From assembly GCA_038214755.1 (NCBI GenBank), contig JBBQRQ010000050.1:1-36321 (forward strand): a DNA stretch of 36,321 nt. Direction: 5' to 3'. Of the stretch, positions 8,528 through 18,006 are shown piece after piece. The notes under the pieces are model-generated. The model did no database searches. It was not told the DNA's origin and worked only from the letters and a program-made list of their open reading frames with translations. This DNA comes from Verrucomicrobiota bacterium. GTDB taxonomy: Bacteria; Verrucomicrobiota; Verrucomicrobiia; Limisphaerales; CANJXF01. The position numbers and the translations under genes are program-made. The stretch's first letter is position 1. Every line of letters begins with the position of its first letter.

Positions 8528-8765
8528 GGAGCGCGGACAGCCTTGTCCGCGCATTTACAAAGACGGACAAAGACGCGGGCGTTTTCACCACTTCGGGTTG
8601 CCGCGGACACGGCTGTCCGCGCTCCATTTCCATCTGGGAACACGCCGTCAATGGCGCAGGGAGCGCGGCGTTCACGCCGCTTCAACGCCCGCACGTCAGA
8701 AAACTGCGGAAATTGATTGAGATTCTCTGCGCTCGTGAGTTGAAGCGGCGTGAACGCCGCGCTCC
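8528..8765. repeat. Two GGAG...CTCC REP-like doublets
   Basis: GGAGCGCGGACAGCC..GGCTGTCCGCGCTCC (8528-8625) and GGAGCGCGGCGTTCACGCCGCTTCAAC..GTTGAAGCGGCGTGAACGCCGCGCTCC (8660-8765). Confidence 0.8.
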
Positions 8766-8866: not shown

Positions 8867-10126
8867 ATGAACGCTAAAGGTATTCTTGTCTTCTCGTTGG
8901 CCGCTAATTTCGGATTGCTCGGCGTAGTTATTTTTCTGCTCGCCAAACCGCCGGCCACCCATCCCGCTGGAGCCGCGCAGAATAATTCGTCCGCCGCGCC
9001 AGTTCAAAAAAACAAATCCAAATCCGCCGAGAAAATTTTCACCGTCTCCACCACGAACGCTCTGAAGATCGATTGGCACATGGTTGAGTCGGAAGATTAC
9101 CGGCAATATATCGCGAACCTCCGCTCCATCGGTTGTCCTGAGGAAACCATCCGCGACATCATAACGGCCGACGTAAATAAACTTTTCGAATCGCGCCGCA
9201 AACAGATGCAGGCCACTTCAACGAACAAATTCGAATTCTGGAAAGCGGGCAGCATGTTCGGCGCGATGATGGACGAAAATAAAATCAAGCAGCAGCAGGA
9301 GATGGCCAAAGAAAAACGCGAACTGCTCAAAACATTGCTCGGCGTCGAGCCGGAAGAAAAAGCCGACATGGCCCTCCTGGTGAATCCCTTTCAGGACATG
9401 CTCGATTTTCTTCCCGACAGCAAACAATCGAAAATCATTGAGCTCATGCAAACCTATCAGGCCAAAGCCATGAAGACTTTCAAAGATGGCGCTCCTGACG
9501 CGACCGACATGAAACAAATGCAAAAGGTGCAAAAAGAAATGGAAGCGGAAATGGCAAAAATTCTCACGCCGGATGAAATGGAAAATTATCAACTGCGTCT
9601 CTCGCAAACTTCCATGATGATGCGAATGCAATTGGCCAGCTTCGATCCCAACGAACAGGAGTTTCGCGACATTTTCAAATTACGAAAAAAATTCGACGAC
9701 GAAAATGGCGTGATGGGCATGGGTTTGTCGGATGACAACGATAAAATGAAAACGGCCCAGAAAGAGTTGAACGATCAGATCAAAGGAATTTTAGGGCCGG
9801 ATCGCTATCCCGATTACGAACGCGCCCAGGATTACGCTTATCAAGCCATCGCGAAAGTGGCGCAGCGGGAAGGTCTGCCCAAAGAGGCGGGCGTCAAAGT
9901 TTACGACATGAAAAAAGCCGCGGAAGAGGAAGCCAAAAAAGTTCGCGCCGACAAAGCGCTTTCCGATGAGCAGCGCAAATCCGCGCTGCAAGCCATTCGC
10001 ACTGAGACCGAACGTTCGATGGGTGAAGTGCTGGGACAAAAAGGGTTCGACTCTTATCAGAAACAACCCACCGCCTATTGGTTGCGCAGCATCAGTCCGA
10101 ATCCAAAAAGCGCGGAGACGAAATAG
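8867..10126 (+). CDS. Hypothetical membrane-anchored alpha-helical protein
   Basis: 419-aa ORF with N-terminal TM segment, 'W..VESEDYRQYIANLRSIGCPEETIRDII' motif and a K/E/M-rich helical body. Confidence 0.75.
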   Translation: MNAKGILVFSLAANFGLLGVVIFLLAKPPATHPAGAAQNNSSAAPVQKNKSKSAEKIFTVSTTNALKIDWHMVESEDYRQYIANLRSIGCPEETIRDIITADVNKLFESRRKQMQATSTNKFEFWKAGSMFGAMMDENKIKQQQEMAKEKRELLKTLLGVEPEEKADMALLVNPFQDMLDFLPDSKQSKIIELMQTYQAKAMKTFKDGAPDATDMKQMQKVQKEMEAEMAKILTPDEMENYQLRLSQTSMMMRMQLASFDPNEQEFRDIFKLRKKFDDENGVMGMGLSDDNDKMKTAQKELNDQIKGILGPDRYPDYERAQDYAYQAIAKVAQREGLPKEAGVKVYDMKKAAEEEAKKVRADKALSDEQRKSALQAIRTETERSMGEVLGQKGFDSYQKQPTAYWLRSISPNPKSAETK

Positions 10127-10153
10127 ACCGGGATTTTTCCGGCTGCTGGCTCG

Positions 10154-10183
10154 TTGACTGTTCAAATCGAACGAGCGTATTCT
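10154..10183 (+). promoter_or_regulatory. Sigma70-like promoter, probably leaderless
   Basis: TTGACT-18bp-TATTCT, 6 nt before ATG 10190. Confidence 0.5.
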
Positions 10184-10189
10184 GATGAC

Positions 10190-10528
10190 ATGACCGAAAC
10201 GGCCGTCTATCCGCACTTTGAAAAACTCTCCGGCGAATCTGCGCGATTGAAGCAACATCCGCGCACTCGAGTTTCGATGATTGTCACCGACTACCAAGGA
10301 CGCGGGTAGACAGCCGAGGAAATTGTTTTGCATTATCCGTATCTCACGCTCGCGGAAGTTCACGCGGTACTGGCTTATTACCACGATCATCGAGCGGAAA
10401 TGGATCGTGAATTGGCGGACGAATTGGCCGAGACGGAACGAGGACCAAAAAGTGCGCCCATCACTCCTTTGCTGGCAAAACTACGCGCGCGCAAAACAGA
10501 GCCATCAAGCGCGCGCGTGCCAACCTAA
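10190..10528 (+). pseudogene. DUF433-family antitoxin with in-frame TAG
   Basis: MTETAVYPHF...PRTRVSMIVTDYQGRG*TAEEIVLHYPYLTLAEVHAVLAYYHDH; TAG at 10307-10309 is in frame with both halves. Confidence 0.8.
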
Positions 10529-10538
10529 AATTGTTTCA

Positions 10539-10760
10539 ATGAAAAAAGAACTAATTTTCCAAATCCAGCAAGAAGAAGGAACCTTCGTAGCGGTTTGCCA
10601 TCAACCCGAAATGGCAACTCAAGGCGACACGTTGGAAGAACTCGTCGGCATGATTAAAGACCTTGTCCACTGCCGATTCGAAGCGCGCGACGAGCAATCG
10701 CATTGGCCGATTCGGTTGCACTTTGTGAATGATCCTGTTCTTGTTGAGGCCCAAGCGTGA
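10539..10760 (+). CDS. HicB-like antitoxin
   Basis: 'EEGTFVAVC...ATQGDTLEEL..MIKD' HicB-type motif; the stop overlaps the hicA-like start (GTGA). Confidence 0.75.
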   Translation: MKKELIFQIQQEEGTFVAVCHQPEMATQGDTLEELVGMIKDLVHCRFEARDEQSHWPIRLHFVNDPVLVEAQA

Positions 10761-10974
10761 AGCTGCCACGGGATTTGTCCGGGGACGAAGTTTGCAAAGC
10801 TTTGCGACGGCTCGGATTTCAATTTCGCAATCAAACCGGTTCGCATCGACATTATGTGAAAGGGAACTTGCATATCCTTGCGTTCCAATGCACCGCAGCT
10901 TGAAGCCGAAGACGCTCCAATCCATTCTCAAGCAGGCGAATCTTTCCATCGAAGAATTGAAAGACGCGCTTTAA
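10757..10974 (+). pseudogene. HicA-like toxin, frameshifted
   Basis: MKLPRDLSGDEVCKALRRLGF..QTGSHRHY, then a frameshift at ~10874 (CAT-AT-CCT) into PCVPMHRSLKPKTLQSILKQA. Confidence 0.8.
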
Positions 10975-10981
10975 AATTGCT

Positions 10982-11053
10982 GTGATTTCTTTTGTTCAAC
11001 GCGGCGAACTCCGCGACCTCTACGACAAAGTCGCAGCGGGCGAGCGCATTTCC
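10982..11053 (+). pseudogene. Diverged duplicate of the mqnE 5' end
   Basis: VISFVQRGELRDLYDKVAAGERIS vs MqnE MNFLIQHSDLRNLYDKIEAGERIS (13/24 identical, ungapped). Confidence 0.8.
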
Positions 11054-11092
11054 GCATTTGCCCGCACTCCGTTTTTCTGTTCTATTTGAGGC

Positions 11093-11350
11093 ATGACGAT
11101 TCGCGCTCTGGAAAAAGAAGTCTTGGATTTGCCGCCACGTTCGCGCGTCCGCTTCGCGGAGAAAATCATCGAAAGCCTGGATGATTTCACCAGTGCGGAA
11201 ATCGAATCGGCGTGGTCGGAGGAGATTGGCCCGCGCGTGAAGGAAATCGAATCCGGCAAAGCCCAGGGAATTCCCGCTTCGGAAGCAATGGCCAAGGCGC
11301 GCCGCGCATTGAATGAAACCCGTCAAATATCATCGGCTCGCCGAAAGTGA
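11093..11350 (+). CDS. Addiction-module antitoxin component
   Basis: 'VLDLPPRSRVRFAEKIIESLD...AWSEEI..RVKEIESGK' pattern; directly upstream of a RelE/ParE toxin. Confidence 0.8.
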   Translation: MTIRALEKEVLDLPPRSRVRFAEKIIESLDDFTSAEIESAWSEEIGPRVKEIESGKAQGIPASEAMAKARRALNETRQISSARRK

Positions 11351-11609
11351 ACTGATCGAATCGGCGAAGTTTTTTGAGCGTCGCCGGGAATTTCTCGGGG
11401 ATAACTTTCTCGACCTAATCGAGGAGACGTTGGCAAAAATCCAAACTAATCCCGATGTGGGCAAGCCGGGAAAGTTCCGCACGCGGAGTTGGAAGGTGAG
11501 GCGTTTTCCGTTCCGTATCGTTTATCTCGAACAGACCGAACGCATCTGGATCGTAGCCGTGGCGCACTTGAGTCGCAAACCGAACTACTGGCTCGATAGG
11601 TTGGATTAG
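11313..11609 (+). CDS. RelE/ParE-family toxin
   Basis: 'HRLAESEL...RRFPFRIVY...IVAVAHLSRKPNYW'. Confidence 0.85.
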   Translation: MKPVKYHRLAESELIESAKFFERRREFLGDNFLDLIEETLAKIQTNPDVGKPGKFRTRSWKVRRFPFRIVYLEQTERIWIVAVAHLSRKPNYWLDRLD

Positions 11610-11616
11610 CAACAAC

Positions 11617-12927
11617 ATGAATTTTCTCATCCAACACAGCGACCTACGCAACCTCTACGACAAAATAGAGGCAGGCGAACGGATTTCCGACGCCGACGCG
11701 CTGCGACTTTTTGAAACGAAAGATTTAAACGCACTCGGCTCAATCGCGGATTTGGTTTGTCAGCGGAAAAATGGAAATCGCGCCAGCTACATCATCAATC
11801 GCTACATCAATTATTCCAACTATTGCATTCTAAGCTGCCAATTTTGCGCCTTCGCTCGGAAGAAACGCGACGCCGATGGTTTTCAATTCACTGTCGAAGA
11901 GATCGTGCAAAAGGCGCGAGAAGCGTTGGCGCTGGGCATCACGGAATTGCACATCGTCGGCGGACTTCATCCTTCGTTGCCGTTCAGTTATTACACCGAA
12001 ATGCTCAAGGCGTTGAGCGCGCTCAATGATGAAATGGGGAGCGCACGCGTCCCGCGTGCAAGTTCGGGCGTCGCGCCCGAACTTTCCGAAGCACCTCAAG
12101 GAAAAGAGCCAGTGAAACAAAGTTTTCGGCGCGACGCCGAAAACCACACGCCAGAGGCGTGCGCTCCCAAACTGCAATTGAAATGCTTCACCGCAATTGA
12201 AATTTTGCATCTTGCCTGGCTCGCGAAAAAATCCGTGCGCGAAACACTCATTGAATTGAAAGAAGCCGGTTTGGAATCGCTCACCGGCGGAGGCGCGGAA
12301 ATCTTTCGCAAAGAAATTCGCTCGCAAATCGCCAAAGGAAAAGAGTCCGCCGAAGAATATATCGACGTCCATCGCACCTGGCATCAACTCGGCGGACGCA
12401 GCACTTGCACGATGCTTTATGGTCACGTGGAATCTCTCGCTGACCGCGTGAATCATTTGAGTTACCTGCGCAATCTCCAAGATGAAACCCACGGCTTCGT
12501 CGGCTTCGTTCCGTTGCCGTATCAACCGGAAAACAATCAAATCGCCGTGGAAAATCCGCCGACTGGTTTCGATTCGCTCCGCACCATCGCCGTGAGCCGG
12601 ATTTATTTGGACAACTTCGATCACATCACCGCGTATTGGGTCGGGATGGGATTGAAACTCGCGCAAGTCGCCTTGAGCTACGGCGCGGACGATATCCACG
12701 GCACGATCATCGAAGAAAATATTTTTCGCATGGCCGGGACCAAAGCGCCGCAACTCCAAACCGAAACCGAAATGGTCAAAGCTATCCGCGAAGTTGGTCG
12801 AACGCCGGTGCAGCGAAATACCTTTTACGAGCCGATAAAAGTTTGGGACGCCGCGCCAACCGCCACAGAAGTTGAACCATCGCCGAGCAAATCCACCATG
12901 TTGGAAGATAATCTGGCGACGGCGTGA
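11617..12927 (+). CDS. mqnE: Aminofutalosine synthase MqnE (CofH/MqnC-like radical SAM)
   Basis: 'NYSNYCILSCQFCAF' CxxxCxxC motif, 'ELHIVGGLHP', 'GGGAEIF', 'AYWVGMG', 'LAQVALSYGADD'; mqnA lies downstream. Confidence 0.82.
   Translation: MNFLIQHSDLRNLYDKIEAGERISDADALRLFETKDLNALGSIADLVCQRKNGNRASYIINRYINYSNYCILSCQFCAFARKKRDADGFQFTVEEIVQKAREALALGITELHIVGGLHPSLPFSYYTEMLKALSALNDEMGSARVPRASSGVAPELSEAPQGKEPVKQSFRRDAENHTPEACAPKLQLKCFTAIEILHLAWLAKKSVRETLIELKEAGLESLTGGGAEIFRKEIRSQIAKGKESAEEYIDVHRTWHQLGGRSTCTMLYGHVESLADRVNHLSYLRNLQDETHGFVGFVPLPYQPENNQIAVENPPTGFDSLRTIAVSRIYLDNFDHITAYWVGMGLKLAQVALSYGADDIHGTIIEENIFRMAGTKAPQLQTETEMVKAIREVGRTPVQRNTFYEPIKVWDAAPTATEVEPSPSKSTMLEDNLATA
12037..12168. repeat. 132-bp REP-like doublet inserted in frame within mqnE
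   Basis: GGGAGCGCACGC ... GCGTGCGCTCCC terminal IR with internal hairpins; length equals 44 codons. Confidence 0.85.
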
Positions 12928-12975
12928 AGCTGAACTTCCCGTTACAACCAAAACCGTTCTGCGTAAAATAAAGCC

Positions 12976-13158
12976 ATAAACAAAGCAGCTACACTTAACG
13001 TTCAGGAAGCGCATCACAAAGCGCGGGCCGAACACTATCTGGCCGAGACGCAGAAGATTCTCCGCCAGTTCGCGACCGATCGGCAACGGGCAGCGCGACG
13101 TCCGCGATCACAGTCCAATCTTGTCCAGCAGGTGAAAGAAATTCTCTACGGCAAATAG
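12976..13158 (+). pseudogene. Small ORF (60 aa) with an ATA start, possible decayed accessory gene
   Basis: Stop-free frame INKAATL...EILYGK*, starting 6 nt after TAAAAT, where a leaderless ATG would be expected. Confidence 0.4.
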
Positions 13159-13161
13159 CCT

Positions 13162-13425
13162 ATGAGCGCATTGGAAGCAGCCGAAGAAATCCTCGCCAAA
13201 CTCTCGCGGGCGGAGAAGGCGCAGTTGCTGCGCTGCACGGCCAGCGATTTGAGTGATGCCTTTCCCGGCATTGAAAGTCGTCCCGGTGTGTGTGGCGGCG
13301 AGCCGTGCGTCGTCCGCACGCGCATTCCCGTGTGGGTGCTGGAACAAGCGCGTCGGCTTCCAACGAAAACTTTTCACTGCCGGTCGTCGAAAAACTTCGC
13401 GCCCTTGGCCAGGAGGTATTGACCA
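13162..13425 (+). pseudogene. Deletion fusion of a DUF433 antitoxin N-half and a DUF5615 (PIN-like) toxin N-terminal fragment
   Basis: 'IESRPGVCGGEPCVVRTRIPVWVL' ends at ~13359; 'NENFSLPVVEKLRALGQEVLT' follows in another frame. Confidence 0.75.
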
Positions 13426-13474
13426 GCCGACGGGCAGATCCAAAGTGCTGGAAGATAATGTGGCGACGGCGTGA
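13426..13474 (+). pseudogene. Duplicate of the mqnE 3' end (short copy)
   Basis: PTGRSKVLEDNVATA* vs MqnE PSKSTMLEDNLATA*. Confidence 0.85.
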
Positions 13475-13517
13475 CGCCCGTCCGGTTGAGAAGATTGGCT
13501 CGACGGCGCATTGCATT

Positions 13518-13560
13518 TCATCAAAACACGTTTTGACAAACCATGTTTTGATGATATGCT
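13518..13560 (+). promoter_or_regulatory. Promoter with overlapping palindromic operator
   Basis: TTGACA-16bp-TATGCT (extended TG); TCATCAAAACA / TGTTTTGATGA inverted repeat spans the -35 box. Confidence 0.65.
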
Positions 13561-13569
13561 CGCGGCACC

Positions 13570-15018
13570 ATGAGCTTTCAAGGTCGCGACCGTGAACTGA
13601 AGACGTTACAGGAAGCGTGGCGCTCGGAGCGCAGCGGCTTCATCCCCATTTACGGGCGTCGTCGCGTGGGCAAGAGCGAATTGATCGTTCACTTCATGTC
13701 CGGCAATCCCGGCCTCTACTTTGTGGGAAAGCGCGCGCCGGGCGAAGCGCAGCTTCAGGAGTTTTTGGAGGCAGCCGCCCGCGCCGTGGGCGAACCCTTG
13801 CTGGCGCAAACGCGTGTCACCACCTGGAAGGCCGCCCTGCAACTGCTCGTCGAGCGATTGCCCGCCGGGAAAAAATTCATCCTCGCACTGGATGAGTTCC
13901 AGTGGATTGCCGAGGCGTGCCCGGAACTTCCCTCCGTCTTGCAGGAACTGTGGGATCGCTCCTGGTCGCGCTCCGGGCGCATCCTGCTCATCCTGTGCGG
14001 TTCATATCTGGGCTTCATGGAACGCGAAGTGCTGGGCCAGAAAAGCCCGCTGTTCGGGCGGCGCACCGCGCAAATTCTCCTGCGTCCTTTCAATCATCTC
14101 GACGCCGCCCGGTTTCACCCGCGTCTTTCGGTGGTGGATCGCGCGCGGGTTTACGCGCTGTGCGGGGGCGTGCCGGCCTACCTGCTGGCCTTCGATGGCG
14201 CGCGTTCCGTGGAGCAGAATATCATGGCGCAAGTGCTGAATGACAACGCCCCGCTGGCCCGCGAGCCCGATTTTCTGCTGCGCGAAGAATTGCGCGATCT
14301 GGTGCCCTATCATGCCGTGTTGATGGCCTTGGCGCAGGGCAAGAGCAGTCCGGCGCAACTGGAAAAATCCACCGGCATTGACGTGCGCGGACTCAATTAT
14401 CATCTCAACACGCTCGTCGAACTGGGCTACGTTCAACGCCGCTATCCGATCACCGAATCCAAACCCAGCGTGCGCTCGGTTCGTTACGCGCTGGACGACC
14501 CGCTGCTGCGGTTCTGGTTTCGATTTGTTTTTCCGCATCAGAGCGTGTTGCGTATGCTTGGGCCGGAGCGCGGGTTTGCGGAAATCGTCCGGCCTGAACT
14601 GGACGCCTATTTCGGTCGCTGTTTCGAGCGTCTCTGCCGCGAATGTCTCCCGTTGCTTTACGCCCGCGAAGGCGTCCGCGCCGCGTTTACCGTGGGCGAA
14701 TACTGGAATGCGGAAGTGCAAATAGACGTGGTGGGCGTGCGCGCCGACAACTGGACCGACCTGGGCGAATGTAAATGGGGCGTGGTGAACTCGCGGCCAG
14801 CGCTGGCCGCCGAACTCGACGCCAAAGTGCCGCGCTTCCCCAACGCCCGCAACGCGACGATCCAGCGCCGGCTCTTTGTGAAGGCGCTGAAATCCAAACC
14901 GCGCCAACCGCCCGCCGGTGTGACCCTGCACACTTTGGAAGATTTGTACGAATTGGACCCAGTGGGCGATAGAATTGGAAAAATGAAAACAAGCACCGCC
15001 ATTGCAGACCGAAGCTGA
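13570..15018 (+). CDS. Archaeal-type AAA ATPase with wHTH, DUF234 and a C-terminal PD-(D/E)xK nuclease-like domain
   Basis: Walker A 'YGRRRVGKS', Walker B 'LALDEFQ', 'DPLLRFWFRF', 'QIDVV...GECKW'. Visibly more GC-rich than its neighbours. Confidence 0.85.
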   Translation: MSFQGRDRELKTLQEAWRSERSGFIPIYGRRRVGKSELIVHFMSGNPGLYFVGKRAPGEAQLQEFLEAAARAVGEPLLAQTRVTTWKAALQLLVERLPAGKKFILALDEFQWIAEACPELPSVLQELWDRSWSRSGRILLILCGSYLGFMEREVLGQKSPLFGRRTAQILLRPFNHLDAARFHPRLSVVDRARVYALCGGVPAYLLAFDGARSVEQNIMAQVLNDNAPLAREPDFLLREELRDLVPYHAVLMALAQGKSSPAQLEKSTGIDVRGLNYHLNTLVELGYVQRRYPITESKPSVRSVRYALDDPLLRFWFRFVFPHQSVLRMLGPERGFAEIVRPELDAYFGRCFERLCRECLPLLYAREGVRAAFTVGEYWNAEVQIDVVGVRADNWTDLGECKWGVVNSRPALAAELDAKVPRFPNARNATIQRRLFVKALKSKPRQPPAGVTLHTLEDLYELDPVGDRIGKMKTSTAIADRS

Positions 15019-15163
15019 AAAGGTCAAAGCCATCCGCCCGCCGGTGCAGCGAAATACTTTTTACGAACCGATAAAAGTTTGGGAGTCTTCGTCAACTGTC
15101 ACTCAAGCGGAACTGCCGACGAATAAATCCAAACTGTTGGAAGATAATTTGGCGACGGCGTAA
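14991..15163 (+). pseudogene. Duplicate of the mqnE 3' end (long copy, 12-nt internal deletion)
   Basis: APPLQTEAEKVKAIR----PPVQRNTFYEPIKVW...LLEDNLATA* aligns to mqnE 12743-12927. Confidence 0.9.
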
Positions 15164-15171
15164 ATAAAATC

Positions 15172-15951
15172 TTACGCAGCAAGCTTGATTATTTTACGCT
15201 GAAAATCTTCTGTTGCATCCAAAGAGGCAACCATTTCTCCACCTACATTTGATAATCGCGCTAAATCAGCGCGAGGAATTGCCTGTTGGTCCTGAAAGAT
15301 GAGGAGTGAATCAAATTCTACTTTTGCCCGCAACCAATGCTCCAACACAATAGTCACGAGGCGAGCTTTATCGCGGGTTGCAACACCAAACAAGAACAAG
15401 GGCGCACGCTTACCTTCAATGCGGAAGTCAATTGGGTAACTCTCCGCTTGAGCGTGATCCGACAGAGTATAATCGGGCTGAATTTTTTCAGGAGCAACCA
15501 AACCGTAAAGTCTTTCCTTCAAATCTTCGTAAAAAGTGCTCGCTACCCACGCGCGATTCAAGAATGTCAGATCATAAATTCGCGTTAGAGCTTGGCCAAA
15601 CTGGAGAACATTCGTGCCTAATGTATCCAGGCTGGAGTCAAGGACGAGTTTGCCTTCTTCGTCCCGCAAACCCGAATCAGCCAAAACCTGGTCCAATAGC
15701 TTTCCACGGGTGCCTTCACGAAACTTGGCAAGATCGTTCTCATAGCTTAAGTGCATGAATGTGTGACCAAAATCAGTCAGTCGCACACTGCCTGCCGCCA
15801 CTTCTTCGAGATAAAGCTGAAACGTATCACCATCTGGAAAACTAAACGGAGTCACGATTTGCAAGTAACCTTGGCGTGTAGTGCGCACTTGAACTTCACC
15901 ACAAAGGGATTTGCAAAGTCGTTCTTTTAATTTGGGGAGGTCGAAAGTCAT
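15172..15951 (-). CDS. DUF1828/DUF1829-like protein
   Basis: 'IVTPFSFPDGDTFQLY...VRLTDFGHT' N-domain and 'YPIDFRI' nuclease-like C-domain; AT-richer codon usage. Confidence 0.7.
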   Translation of the reverse strand: MTFDLPKLKERLCKSLCGEVQVRTTRQGYLQIVTPFSFPDGDTFQLYLEEVAAGSVRLTDFGHTFMHLSYENDLAKFREGTRGKLLDQVLADSGLRDEEGKLVLDSSLDTLGTNVLQFGQALTRIYDLTFLNRAWVASTFYEDLKERLYGLVAPEKIQPDYTLSDHAQAESYPIDFRIEGKRAPLFLFGVATRDKARLVTIVLEHWLRAKVEFDSLLIFQDQQAIPRADLARLSNVGGEMVASLDATEDFQRKIIKLAA

Positions 15952-16430
15952 TCGAAAAGCTTCGGGTGATCAGCCTGTGTTTCAAGACCGGCGATGTTGC
16001 AATCCGCTGCCAGTCGGTGCAATGCGCCGTTGCATGTCTGATAAGAAAGGGCTGCTTCGGCAAAACCGTCTGGCTTCCGGTTTGCCCAGATGTATCGCTC
16101 GGTTGTTCGATGAATATGGCAGACGTAATCAAGGCTATTGCCTTCGATCCGATTTGGATGGCTATGACTCGAACCGTTGTAGCGGGCCAAAATCAGTTCT
16201 TCACCGCCAGCGGGCAACCACTGAAGGCCGCAAGAAAGTCATCATTGATTGTTGTGTTTTGTCGCACAAACAAACGAAATCGCTCGTCGCCATCCAAGCT
16301 CTCGACAATATTCACGCTTGTCATGGTTCGCATCAGCGACATTTCTCGCGGTTGGGTTGGTAACGCGTTTGAGCATGAGCAAGAGTTGCTTGATCCGTTC
16401 GTCAGTGAGTGATTCAAAAGCCATAGCCAT
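15948..16430 (-). pseudogene. Partner gene of the DUF1828 protein (DUF6978-like, HxN...HxH motifs) with two frameshifts
   Basis: MAFESLTDERI...KREY / VESLDGDERFRLFVRQN..DDF / CGLQWLPAGGEELILARYNGSSHSHPN..HIH; shifts at ~16307 and ~16235; the stop overlaps the next start (ATGA). Confidence 0.65.
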
Positions 16431-16545
16431 CAATTGAGCCAACGTGATGACGAACGTAACGAACTGTCAGCGAAGCGGCAATAAGGGATTCGCTCCGTTA
16501 CCCAAATGGCTGGAACAAAGTTTGGCTACGCCTTAACTTCCCGGC

Positions 16546-16941
16546 ATGTCTTATCATCGAGGCAAATATTATGTCTGGGCTGGTTTGGATGGCATTCACC
16601 TGTGGGCGGCTGATGGCGAGGATTCGTGGAAAGATTCTGGATGGGCCGAAGGCGTTAAACATTGGAAAGTAAAACGCGGACAGAAAGCAAGCGGTGTCCG
16701 TCTTCCAGAAACGGTTATGGACGAGTTTGTCGTCATGCGGTTTGCCGAATTGATCGACGAGAAAAAACTTGTTGCGACGATTCGGCGCGCCATCAAAGGC
16801 AAGCTCGGCAACTACGGTGAAGTCAGCTTGCGGCGTCATGCCAAAACCATTTTGAGAAAGCTGAAGGCTGTGAAGCCTTGTGTCGCGATAAAACAAAAGA
16901 AACGAAATCTCCGCCGCAAAAATCGCGCTCGTCCGCAATGA
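16546..16941 (+). CDS. Hypothetical protein
   Basis: 131-aa ORF with TAACTT 6 nt upstream; its stop overlaps the mqnA start (ATGA). Confidence 0.6.
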   Translation: MSYHRGKYYVWAGLDGIHLWAADGEDSWKDSGWAEGVKHWKVKRGQKASGVRLPETVMDEFVVMRFAELIDEKKLVATIRRAIKGKLGNYGEVSLRRHAKTILRKLKAVKPCVAIKQKKRNLRRKNRARPQ

Positions 16942-17825
16942 GTTCATCCGACGACATTCCAAAACTCCGAATGGCTTCGCACGCATCAGCGGAAGATTTG
17001 GCCAAGCGATTCGAACGCGAAACTCGTCGCGTGCTGGATCAACGTGAAGGTGATTTAGAAAATTCTCTCGCGCCGTTTCGCGTTGGCTCCGTGCCTTATT
17101 TGAATGCGGTTCCGCTGACGCGTGGGTTGGAAGAACAGATTCATTTCATGCCGCCCTCGCAACTCGCCGAGAAACTTCAGCGCGACGAACTCGATGCCGC
17201 GCTAGTCAGCGTCACCGAAGTTTTGTTCAACGACCGTTACGATGTGCTGGATGGAGTCGCCGTGGCGTCGCTCGGCGAAGTCAAAAGTGTTTTTCTCGCG
17301 CACAAAAAACCGCTGGAAGAAATTCGCGAAATTTTTTGCGACACCGCCTCGCTCACGAGCGTGAATCTTTTGAAAATTTTGTTGGCGGAAAAAAATCTTA
17401 AGCCGGAATTAAAACCATTGCCGAATTACGATGTCGCGGCCCAGCTCGAAAATGTTTTGCTCATCGGTGACCGCGGCCTCGATTTTTTGCGCGCTCCTCA
17501 CTCCCACGAAATCTGGGATCTCGGCGAAGCTTGGTTCGACCTGACGAAACTGCCGTTCGTCTATGCGGTCTGGGCATTGCGCCGCGGCATTGAAAATAAA
17601 AATCTCCGCCGCCAATTGCGCGAGGCAAAAAGTTTTGGCCTCGAGACGCTCGACCACATCATCGCCAGCCGCCCGGAGTTTGATCTCGATTTTCGAAAAG
17701 ATTATCTCACCTGGCACATTCAATATCATCTCGGCGCGGATGAAAAACTCGGTCTGAAAAAGTTCATGGAGCTTTTGCGCAAGCATGATTTTCCTGCCGT
17801 TTACGAGCCGCGTTTTGTGATTTGA
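16938..17825 (+). CDS. mqnA: Chorismate dehydratase MqnA (futalosine pathway)
   Basis: 'VGSVPYLNAVPL', 'GEVKSV', 'SLTSVNL', 'LLIGD', 'DLGEAW...LPFVYAVW'. Confidence 0.88.
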   Translation: MSSSDDIPKLRMASHASAEDLAKRFERETRRVLDQREGDLENSLAPFRVGSVPYLNAVPLTRGLEEQIHFMPPSQLAEKLQRDELDAALVSVTEVLFNDRYDVLDGVAVASLGEVKSVFLAHKKPLEEIREIFCDTASLTSVNLLKILLAEKNLKPELKPLPNYDVAAQLENVLLIGDRGLDFLRAPHSHEIWDLGEAWFDLTKLPFVYAVWALRRGIENKNLRRQLREAKSFGLETLDHIIASRPEFDLDFRKDYLTWHIQYHLGADEKLGLKKFMELLRKHDFPAVYEPRFVI

Positions 17826-17837
17826 GCGGAACCTCAA

Positions 17838-18000
17838 TTCCGAAATCCGAATCCCGAAATCCGAAAGAAGACCGAAATCCGAGTTCCGAAAACGTCTTCG
17901 AGCCAGCGCCGCAAAAATGGCTTGGCCCCACAAAGTTCCCAAATCTTTCGGCCTTCGGGTTTCGGGTTTCTTTCGGATTTCGGGATTCGGATTTCGGATT
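17838..18000. repeat. Inverted heptamer (TCCGAAA/TTTCGGA) array between convergent genes
   Basis: Degenerate TCCGAAA repeats followed by the complementary TTCGGAT repeats; could act as a terminator. Confidence 0.8.
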
Positions 18001-18006
18001 TAAAAA

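Follow-up and report, generated by a model that had tools for sequence, protein, structure and literature searches.

Many chromosomal toxin-antitoxin (TA) and defense genes lie without a visible mobile element, and how they arrive is an open question. The question is raised by a 36,321-nt contig (C50; hereafter the window) of the 175-contig genome of a Verrucomicrobiota bacterium (GCA_038214755.1; 5.1 Mb, GC 0.527), where small TA and candidate defense cassettes are stacked on both sides of mqnE, the gene for aminofutalosine synthase, and where displaced copies of the ends of mqnE itself stand among the cassettes. From these copies, from the same locus in relatives, and from the ends of other genes in the genome, we conclude that the stack is probably the scar of repeated, RecA-anchored gene-end replacement without a recombinase, in which the end of a relative's gene came in together with its cargo.

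Three displaced ends of mqnE

When mqnE is compared by blastn with the whole genome, its nt 1127–1309 match window positions 14991–15161 (75% identity with one 12-nt gap, E 2e-31), its nt 1265–1311 match 13428–13474 (83%, E 6e-6), and its nt 16–73 match 10997–11054 (79%, E 2e-6). A repeat finder agrees on these end copies, and the three copies are thus where an initial annotation, made from the sequence alone, had placed them; blastn found no copy of either mqnE end on another contig of the genome. The peptides read from the copies in that annotation, PVQRNTFYEPIKVW and LEDN(L/V)ATA*, and the stops TGA/TGA/TAA are likewise correct. It had also remarked on many third-position changes, and this is true of the long 3′ copy, where the ratio of nonsynonymous to synonymous differences (pN/pS) against the resident end is 0.38 (0.19 across its conserved 30 codons), and of the 5′ copy (0.41 against the resident start), but not of the short 3′ copy (1.44 on 14 codons).

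The resident mqnE end gives pN/pS values of 0.20–0.44 against ten intact alleles, and the 0.38 of the long copy is inside this range. All three copies are also nearer to an allele of another genome than to the gene beside which they lie (84.7 vs 75.0, 89.4 vs 83.0, and 84.4 vs 80.3 percent). These allele-like properties support the claim that the copies are ends of distinct, once-functional alleles.

In a 29-row tree, the long copy falls inside the family clade (97/93) without a settled sister, while the copies found in three relatives (G031, G059, and G033) are each sister to the allele of their own genome, and together these placements point to exchange among close kin. The last 45 nt of the two ends give a hint only: the resident tail is nearest to alleles of other families (33/45 to G034, G042, and L130) and the tail of the long copy is nearest to alleles of the genus (31–32/45), and the 186-column tree leaves the direction of the 3′ replacement open.

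A relative with the same cassettes in the opposite order

On the 5′ side, the order of arrival can be read from one relative, G007. There, a HicBA cassette leads straight into the start of an intact mqnE, and the HicBA cassette of the window (10539–10974, 83% identity) together with the displaced 5′ copy aligns continuously with it, on into the intact G007 gene. Thus, the 5′ copy of the window occupies the position of a functional start in the relative. The addiction-module cassette that adjoins mqnE in the window is found further out in G007, where it is joined to what is left of an mqnE start (14 nt), and the leader of this remnant matches the displaced start in G005. The two genomes therefore hold the same two 5′ cassettes in opposite order. 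The addiction cassette is joined at mqnE codon 24 in the window and at a different codon in G007, in both cases at ATTTCC, a 6-base microhomology. In both genomes, the inner toxin on the 5′ side is intact and the outer toxin is broken, as expected if new cassettes enter beside the gene.

On the 3′ side, the DUF433-DUF5615 version of the window lacks ~150 nt of its interior and is truncated at a short stretch that matches mqnE, with TTGA(A)CCA at the join to the short copy; in G005, the intact pair is followed directly by a 181-nt mqnE copy.

Cassettes at mqnE in relatives

We compared 47 mqnE loci from 46 genomes of the order. As the initial annotation had expected of such a site, the cassettes vary among relatives at both mqnE ends or are lacking, with mqnE adjoining mqnA in 18 of the 47 loci. 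The relatives' cargo includes PIN, HigBA, UPF0175/DUF3368, Gp49/HI1420, Fic, CHRD, AAA ATPase, and GIY-YIG genes, and no integrase was found among the 92 open reading frames (ORFs) of these loci; the only DDE_3 match, in G033, is located past the copy. Copies of mqnE ends were found by blastn in eight of the 46 genomes (G005, G007, G009, G013, G031, G033, G042, and G059), with mqnC-paralogue matches and those to the palindromic insert described below left out. In G009, an unpublished genome, both the weak copy and the HicA gene beside mqnE are supporting only, and no conclusion depends on them. In G005, a 5′ end of mqnA is displaced as well. The last 61 residues of MqnE have at least two matches in 9/201 genomes of the order, 3/5 in the genus and 6/196 elsewhere (including G044 and G069, by match alone).

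Five genomes, each from a different family (G001, G031, G033, G034, and G059), have one and the same Gp49/HI1420 cassette behind mqnE. In three of the five (G031, G059, and G033), a copy starts right after the stop codon of the cassette, at a point 160–167 nt before the mqnE stop, and these copies are 90–96% identical to the host's own allele. Separately, G013 has two internal or 3′ mqnE fragments 3.6–4.5 kb downstream of mqnE (locus L035, contig C30) and a second mqnE-like 3′ end on another contig (C34).

The same scar at other gene ends

We scanned 3254 ORFs of at least 150 residues in the genome for copies of their ends within 12 kb. For 3′ ends, the raw scan gave 69 downstream vs 21 upstream copies. 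After paralogues inside ORFs and repeats with more than four copies were removed, 53 3′ copies remained downstream of 47 genes and 24 5′ copies upstream of 22 genes, vs 8 and 12 copies on the respective opposite sides. In the 3′ set, the median copy is 87 nt long and lies at a median distance of 849 nt. The genome-wide pN/pS is 0.20 for the 3′ set and 0.245 for the 5′ set, where a decaying local duplicate would be expected to show ~0.5 or more, and 23 of the 26 gaps in the copies are frameshifts. Host families, named from Pfam, include ThrS, LysS, SerS, PheT, a GyrB-family subunit, GlyA, IlvD, PurB, MutS, FtsK, and GlnA. The initial annotation had inferred a hotspot anchored on a menaquinone gene, but a hotspot peculiar to such a gene is not supported; with the same scar at ~70 other gene ends, mqnE is one busy site rather than a special anchor, and the process is genome-wide.

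A few rows of the scan are paralogous or nested, and with four hosts removed, 47 rows were kept for junction analysis. Identity just past the stop is 0.33–0.34, with four rows extending past the stop; the stop is retained in 38 of the 47 copies, and copy lengths run from 36 to 609 nt. No junction motif stands above background in the 47 rows (the top 5-mer occurs in 9/47, against a random 95th percentile of 10), nor is there a positional consensus. With breakpoints this variable and no shared motif, the integron-like mechanism that had been suggested is not borne out, and the likeness is limited to the newest cassette probably lying beside the gene.

Families of the TA or defense type are present in 24 of 54 loci, and among 231 cargo ORFs (shadow frames included) none matches an integrase, resolvase, or transposase family. 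The genome has five tyrosine recombinase matches (PF00589) and one serine recombinase match, none on C50 and none within ~12 kb of a scored site. Scar density in samples of 400 kb per genome was 6 matches in 227 ORFs for G059 (3–4 of them independent), 0/230 for G051, and 0/245 for G001, vs 11 genes in 1066 ORFs here, which is too little sequence to call a difference.

Some of the other sites have contents of their own. The stack is deeper at L082 (G000:C26:15320–30569), where an IlvD-family gene has three displaced ends spread across 9 kb; a short GIY-YIG match and a large Ig-repeat gene are part of it. Cassettes at L089 and L083, bounded by displaced ends, match PADLOC HEC-01A/B (E 5e-142 and 6e-56) and a Pycsar/CBASS-type TIR effector.

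Features of the stack and quality of the assembly

The features of the stack are given in Table 1.

Table 1. Cassettes, displaced ends, and anchor genes around mqnE in the window
Position	Strand	Feature	Matches and remarks
10190..10528	+	Broken antitoxin-like ORF with internal TAG; outermost 5′-side remnant	"DUF433-like" by reading, without Pfam match
10539..10974	+	HicB-like gene and frameshifted HicA; older 5′ cassette	PF07927 in two frames; HicB label by adjacency
10982..11054	+	Displaced mqnE 5′ end, 24 codons	75% to own mqnE; 81–85% to G007, G003, G033 alleles
11048..11092	+	Join with ATTTCC microhomology, then cassette leader	89% alignment to same leader in G007
11093..11609	+	Antitoxin of an addiction module with intact ParE toxin; newest 5′ cassette by inference	PF09720, PF05016, TIGR02574
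11617..12927	+	mqnE, aminofutalosine synthase; anchor gene	TIGR03700, 443.6 bits (cut-off 434.55)
12037..12168	+	Palindromic repeat, in frame inside mqnE; separate feature	
12976..13158	+	60-codon orphan ORF; ATA where G013 reads ATG	Homologous DNA in G013, G046
13162..13425	+	Decayed DUF433-DUF5615 pair; ~150-nt internal deletion and truncation	PF04255; intact version in G005
13426..13474	+	Displaced mqnE 3′ end, short copy	
13513..13560	+	ATPase cassette start: 23-bp inverted repeat that covers best sigma-70-type promoter match	
13570..15018	+	AAA ATPase–winged helix-turn-helix–DUF234 gene; candidate defense gene	PF01637 (ATPase_2), PF03008; PADLOC PDC-S27, E 4.6e-55
14991..15163	+	Displaced mqnE 3′ end, long copy; in-frame 12-nt deletion, TAA stop	
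15172..16442	-	DUF1828 gene and frameshifted upstream partner	PF08861; PDC-M24B; phrog_5059, phrog_27326
16546..16941	+	Orphan 131-aa ORF	Without family in Pfam, PHROGs, NCBIfam, PADLOC
16938..17825	+	mqnA-type gene	PF02621; adjoins mqnE in relatives without insert

The gene calls of the initial annotation hold for the antitoxin, ParE, MqnE, the truncated DUF433, the ATPase/DUF234 gene, DUF1828, and mqnA, while the DUF5615 label comes from the intact G005 gene and not from a Pfam match. Its extent has to be corrected, because the stack goes on upstream of 10982 with the frameshifted HicA pair and the broken antitoxin-like ORF. Its statement that no integrase or recombinase is present stands: none was found in the cassettes, and no integrase, resolvase, or tRNA was found on the window contig. 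The leader within 11048–11092 looks promoter-like by eye only, and a promoter scan did not pick it up. The ATPase ORF reaches 28 nt into the long mqnE copy, and GC steps from ~0.61 over the ATPase gene to ~0.47 over DUF1828. No match to the ATPase cassette was found in eight other genomes of the genus, and as possible sources only 2 of 60 relatives came up, each 31% identical.

The insert at 12037–12168 of mqnE is a REP-like palindrome of ~44 codons with kin copies on ~15 other contigs. The same loop of mqnE holds different in-frame inserts in at least 11 relatives, with a second insert further on in G005 and G031. More palindromic repeat pairs lie at window positions 8528–8765 and 17836–18001, the second of which is very high-copy in the sample (depth >1600).

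That misassembly of strain variants produced the stack has next to no probability in our judgment. The genome is a metagenome assembly, and the re-assembled run also has a minor diverged mqnE variant at window positions 11866–11999 (depth 5.5, 13 differences in 134 bases) and a mid-gene contig (12139–12782) with a depth of 15.8 vs 24, hinting at allele variation within the population. However, re-assembled contigs cover 9500–11888 and 12753–17868, each in one piece with zero differences and a flat depth of ~24, and the same stack layout is seen again in G059, a genome of only two contigs. The re-assembly input was one public run (X1), which is probably the source run, so that this is a second assembly and no independent data; runs X2 and X3 contain next to none of the sequence words of the stretch.

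Discussion

The layout, the allele-like divergence, the variable breakpoints, the empty site, and one microhomology join are observed directly, and the following mechanism starts from them. DNA of a relative would arrive with part of its mqnE and a cassette on one end, plausibly by transformation. RecA would pair the incoming DNA inside mqnE, and the other end would be joined illegitimately at a few-base microhomology in the resident gene end, such as the one seen for the addiction cassette; alternatively, the fragment would circularize and enter by a single crossover, and the two routes are not separated here. By either route, the gene would remain whole with an end from the donor, its former end being pushed beyond the cassette, which is the structure found, with its direction given at the 5′ end by G007. 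Between the gene end and the displaced end, the cassette would have two homology arms and could spread, stack, or be lost by ordinary homologous recombination, and the five-family Gp49/HI1420 cassette with its 160–167-nt copies is as expected if a displaced end later serves as the second arm. The survivors would be the events that spared the housekeeping gene and its neighbor, strictly so where the mqnE stop touches the mqnA start, and the scars would therefore be found at gene ends. In the portion of PMC3240628 covered here, both routes are shown experimentally: homology-facilitated illegitimate recombination (HFIR), which is RecA-dependent and uses one homologous anchor with a 3–10 bp microhomology, and single crossover of a re-circularized fragment, which gave gene-end duplications of 109–950 bp in Escherichia coli. 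The many copies shorter than 60 nt favor HFIR or later erosion. In favor of the mechanism, the genome has recA, comEC, and dprA.

Several points weigh against this mechanism. HFIR is described as 100 to 1,000,000 times rarer than homologous recombination and as usually deleting about as much DNA as it inserts (PMC3240628, same portion). No donor-recipient pair or intermediate was seen, and competence genes do not prove competence. The short 3′ copy, being without synonymous bias on its 14 codons, is uninformative or contrary, and the native 3′ end is unsettled in the tree, where the resident end and the long copy both fall in the family clade. The microhomology evidence is from a single cassette, seen in two genomes, and a deletion at a later time can give the same joins. 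The order of decay on the 3′ side is not monotonic, the inner cassette being broken and the ATPase gene intact. Finally, no joint that skips a cassette is found among the contigs of run X1, although contigs cannot prove absence.

We consider it rather unlikely that the stack is started or driven by a free-standing GIY-YIG homing endonuclease that would cut mqnE and bring in, or force, a replacement end. A phage-type gene of this kind (phrog_314, phrog_7168, "homing endonuclease") starts 5–7 nt past an mqnE stop or stop remnant in three of four distinct loci (G001, G007, and L130), and in fungal mitochondria, ORFs for endonucleases are described next to duplicated C-termini of cob and atp6 in the part of PMC6279837 covered. 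However, no homologue was found in this genome, only 3/401 genomes of the order have the gene, and in G001, G007, and L130 it follows the last mqnE end, with no displaced end found behind it at the loci checked (L128 and L130). None of the 231 cargo ORFs matches GIY-YIG or HNH, though a short match to GIY-YIG occurs within the C26 stack, and the 5′ copies and the ~70 other anchor genes are left unexplained. At the fourth locus (G176), the nuclease gene follows a gene other than mqnE. The gene, which has zinc-finger-like repeats (L031:10433–12151, L050:503–1816, L130:5001–6701, and L129:565–2238), is a candidate for a free-standing homing endonuclease beside a housekeeping gene of the chromosome; it may heat up the mqnE site in some lineages, with the genome-wide pattern beyond its reach. 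L130 is titled Bifidobacteriaceae, yet its mqnE is 76% identical to that of the window, and it is probably mis-binned or mislabeled. That gene ends are targeted and cassettes captured by a dedicated system, whether host-encoded or working in trans, also seems quite improbable to us. The scar density is high (47/3254 ORFs), the cassettes seem to start at a promoter and end at a stop codon, and mqnE breakpoints cluster 160–185 nt before the stop in five genomes, but inherited homology arms explain the clustering and deletion explains the trimming, and there is a broad length range with no junction motif and no candidate enzyme linked to the sites.

Decayed integrase islands, in which tyrosine or serine integrases restored a split gene and were later lost, are very unlikely and largely refuted here. 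Such islands have the same layout of a restored target and a displaced fragment (PMC4383910, as far as covered), and the genome does hold the recombinases noted above. Against them stand the lack of any recombinase on the contig or within ~12 kb of a scored site, the median cassette of ~850 nt without an integrase remnant, the breakpoints that vary within one gene, the use of both ends, and ~70 unrelated targets. Local tandem duplication of a gene end, followed by neutral decay and later insertion, is disfavored and highly improbable. It would fit the G031, G059, and G033 copies, which are close to and sister of their own alleles, and the copies do decay, as the frameshifts show. But the window copies are nearer to the alleles of other genomes, the genome-wide pN/pS is 0.20 for 3′ ends, homology ends at the stop codon, and the side bias is strong.

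Beyond replacement of gene ends with cargo, the displaced ends could be working parts. A TA or defense cassette between a gene end and its copy would then be a recombinase-free mobile unit that homes to the gene across species and families, via two arms or an excised circle, and stacks at either end, with the GIY-YIG nuclease perhaps adding drive at mqnE. We regard this as a doubtful possibility; if true, it would be a general and so far uncounted route for building defense and TA islands. In either case, ~70 gene ends in one genome bear a scar from which the landing gene and, at one site, the order of arrival can be read, and the question of how such genes arrive thus becomes testable by comparative genomics. 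The scars are also a way to find defense candidates that have no known neighbors.

Comparison with known systems

An integron has the integrase IntI, attI and attC sites, and an ordered cassette array. The mqnE locus shares with it an ordered stack of small TA- and defense-rich cassettes, the newest probably beside the anchor, but here the cassettes seem to have their own promoters and lie in both orientations. No IntI stands beside the array (of the five PF00589 matches in the genome, none is on C50), and no shared site of the attI/attC type was found at the 47 junctions in a comparison made without an attC covariance model; each boundary there is a coding end particular to its gene. In the integrase islands found by Islander, a restored gene and a displaced fragment mark the ends of the insert (PMC4383910); unlike these, the cassettes here have no integrase, no fixed crossover site, and protein-coding targets at both ends. 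A homing element would have an endonuclease between the new and the displaced end, and none is found there in the window.

The C-terminal displacement arrays are closer. In rhs genes, homology lets in a new gene end and the previous one is shunted downstream, so that arrays build (Jackson 2009, PMC2935791), and C-terminal displacement is also described for effector-immunity arrays of the type VI secretion system (T6SS), where a resemblance to integrons without an integrase is noted (Kirchberger 2017, PMC5361080), each in the part of the paper covered here. The entry routes discussed there, a circle with a single crossover or HFIR, are shared with our model for mqnE; in the portion of PMC3240628 covered, such events are of the laboratory and of low frequency and are not shown for Verrucomicrobiota. 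As in displacement arrays, variable-length ends from the anchor's own clade are stacked downstream. However, in rhs and T6SS the new end is the payload, the toxin tip of a specialized gene, whereas here the end is functionally equivalent and only carries in cargo unrelated to it, housekeeping genes serve as anchors, and insertion takes place at 5′ ends as well. The anchor is MqnE, with equivalent ends, and not a polymorphic toxin such as rhs, contact-dependent inhibition (CDI), or T6SS proteins.

Closest of all is insertion with long target duplication. Work by Nobusato in 2000 is reportedly also on this subject. Such insertion is described for restriction-modification genes, with DNA breakage as the proposed cause, in Furuta, Abe, and Kobayashi 2010 (PMC2853133), and the part of that paper covered gives the features compared here. 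Shared are selfish or defense genes without a mobility gene and long, variable, imperfect direct repeats; the repeats there frequently extend over the start or stop site of the target, which is left unharmed, and most cases come from competent species. That definition calls for a direct repeat of >30 bp unique in the genome around an insert of <20 kb, and here the repeats are 47–173 nt and confined to this contig, and the insert has no mobility gene. An empty site with one copy is present in kin, with HicA directly before mqnE in G007 and mqnE next to mqnA in 18/47 loci, in other species and not in strains. The window cargo is TA, PDC-S27-like, and DUF1828 genes rather than restriction-modification genes, a type IIG-like gene being found at one other locus (L105). 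Also different here are the mostly TA and candidate defense cargo, the stacking, the ~70 gene ends in one genome, and repeats that are synonymously diverged allele ends mostly ending at the stop codon. No TA- or Verrucomicrobia-specific description of the pattern was found in the literature searched, which lacks most subscription journals; supplements (e.g., Furuta Supplementary Figure 7) may hold closer cases. We conclude that the stack is no integron but belongs with insertion with long target duplication and C-terminal displacement, as a variant that is two-sided, rich in TA genes, and genome-wide. Since the classes of mechanism are already known, its value lies in the scale, the two-sidedness, and the cargo, with no new enzyme.

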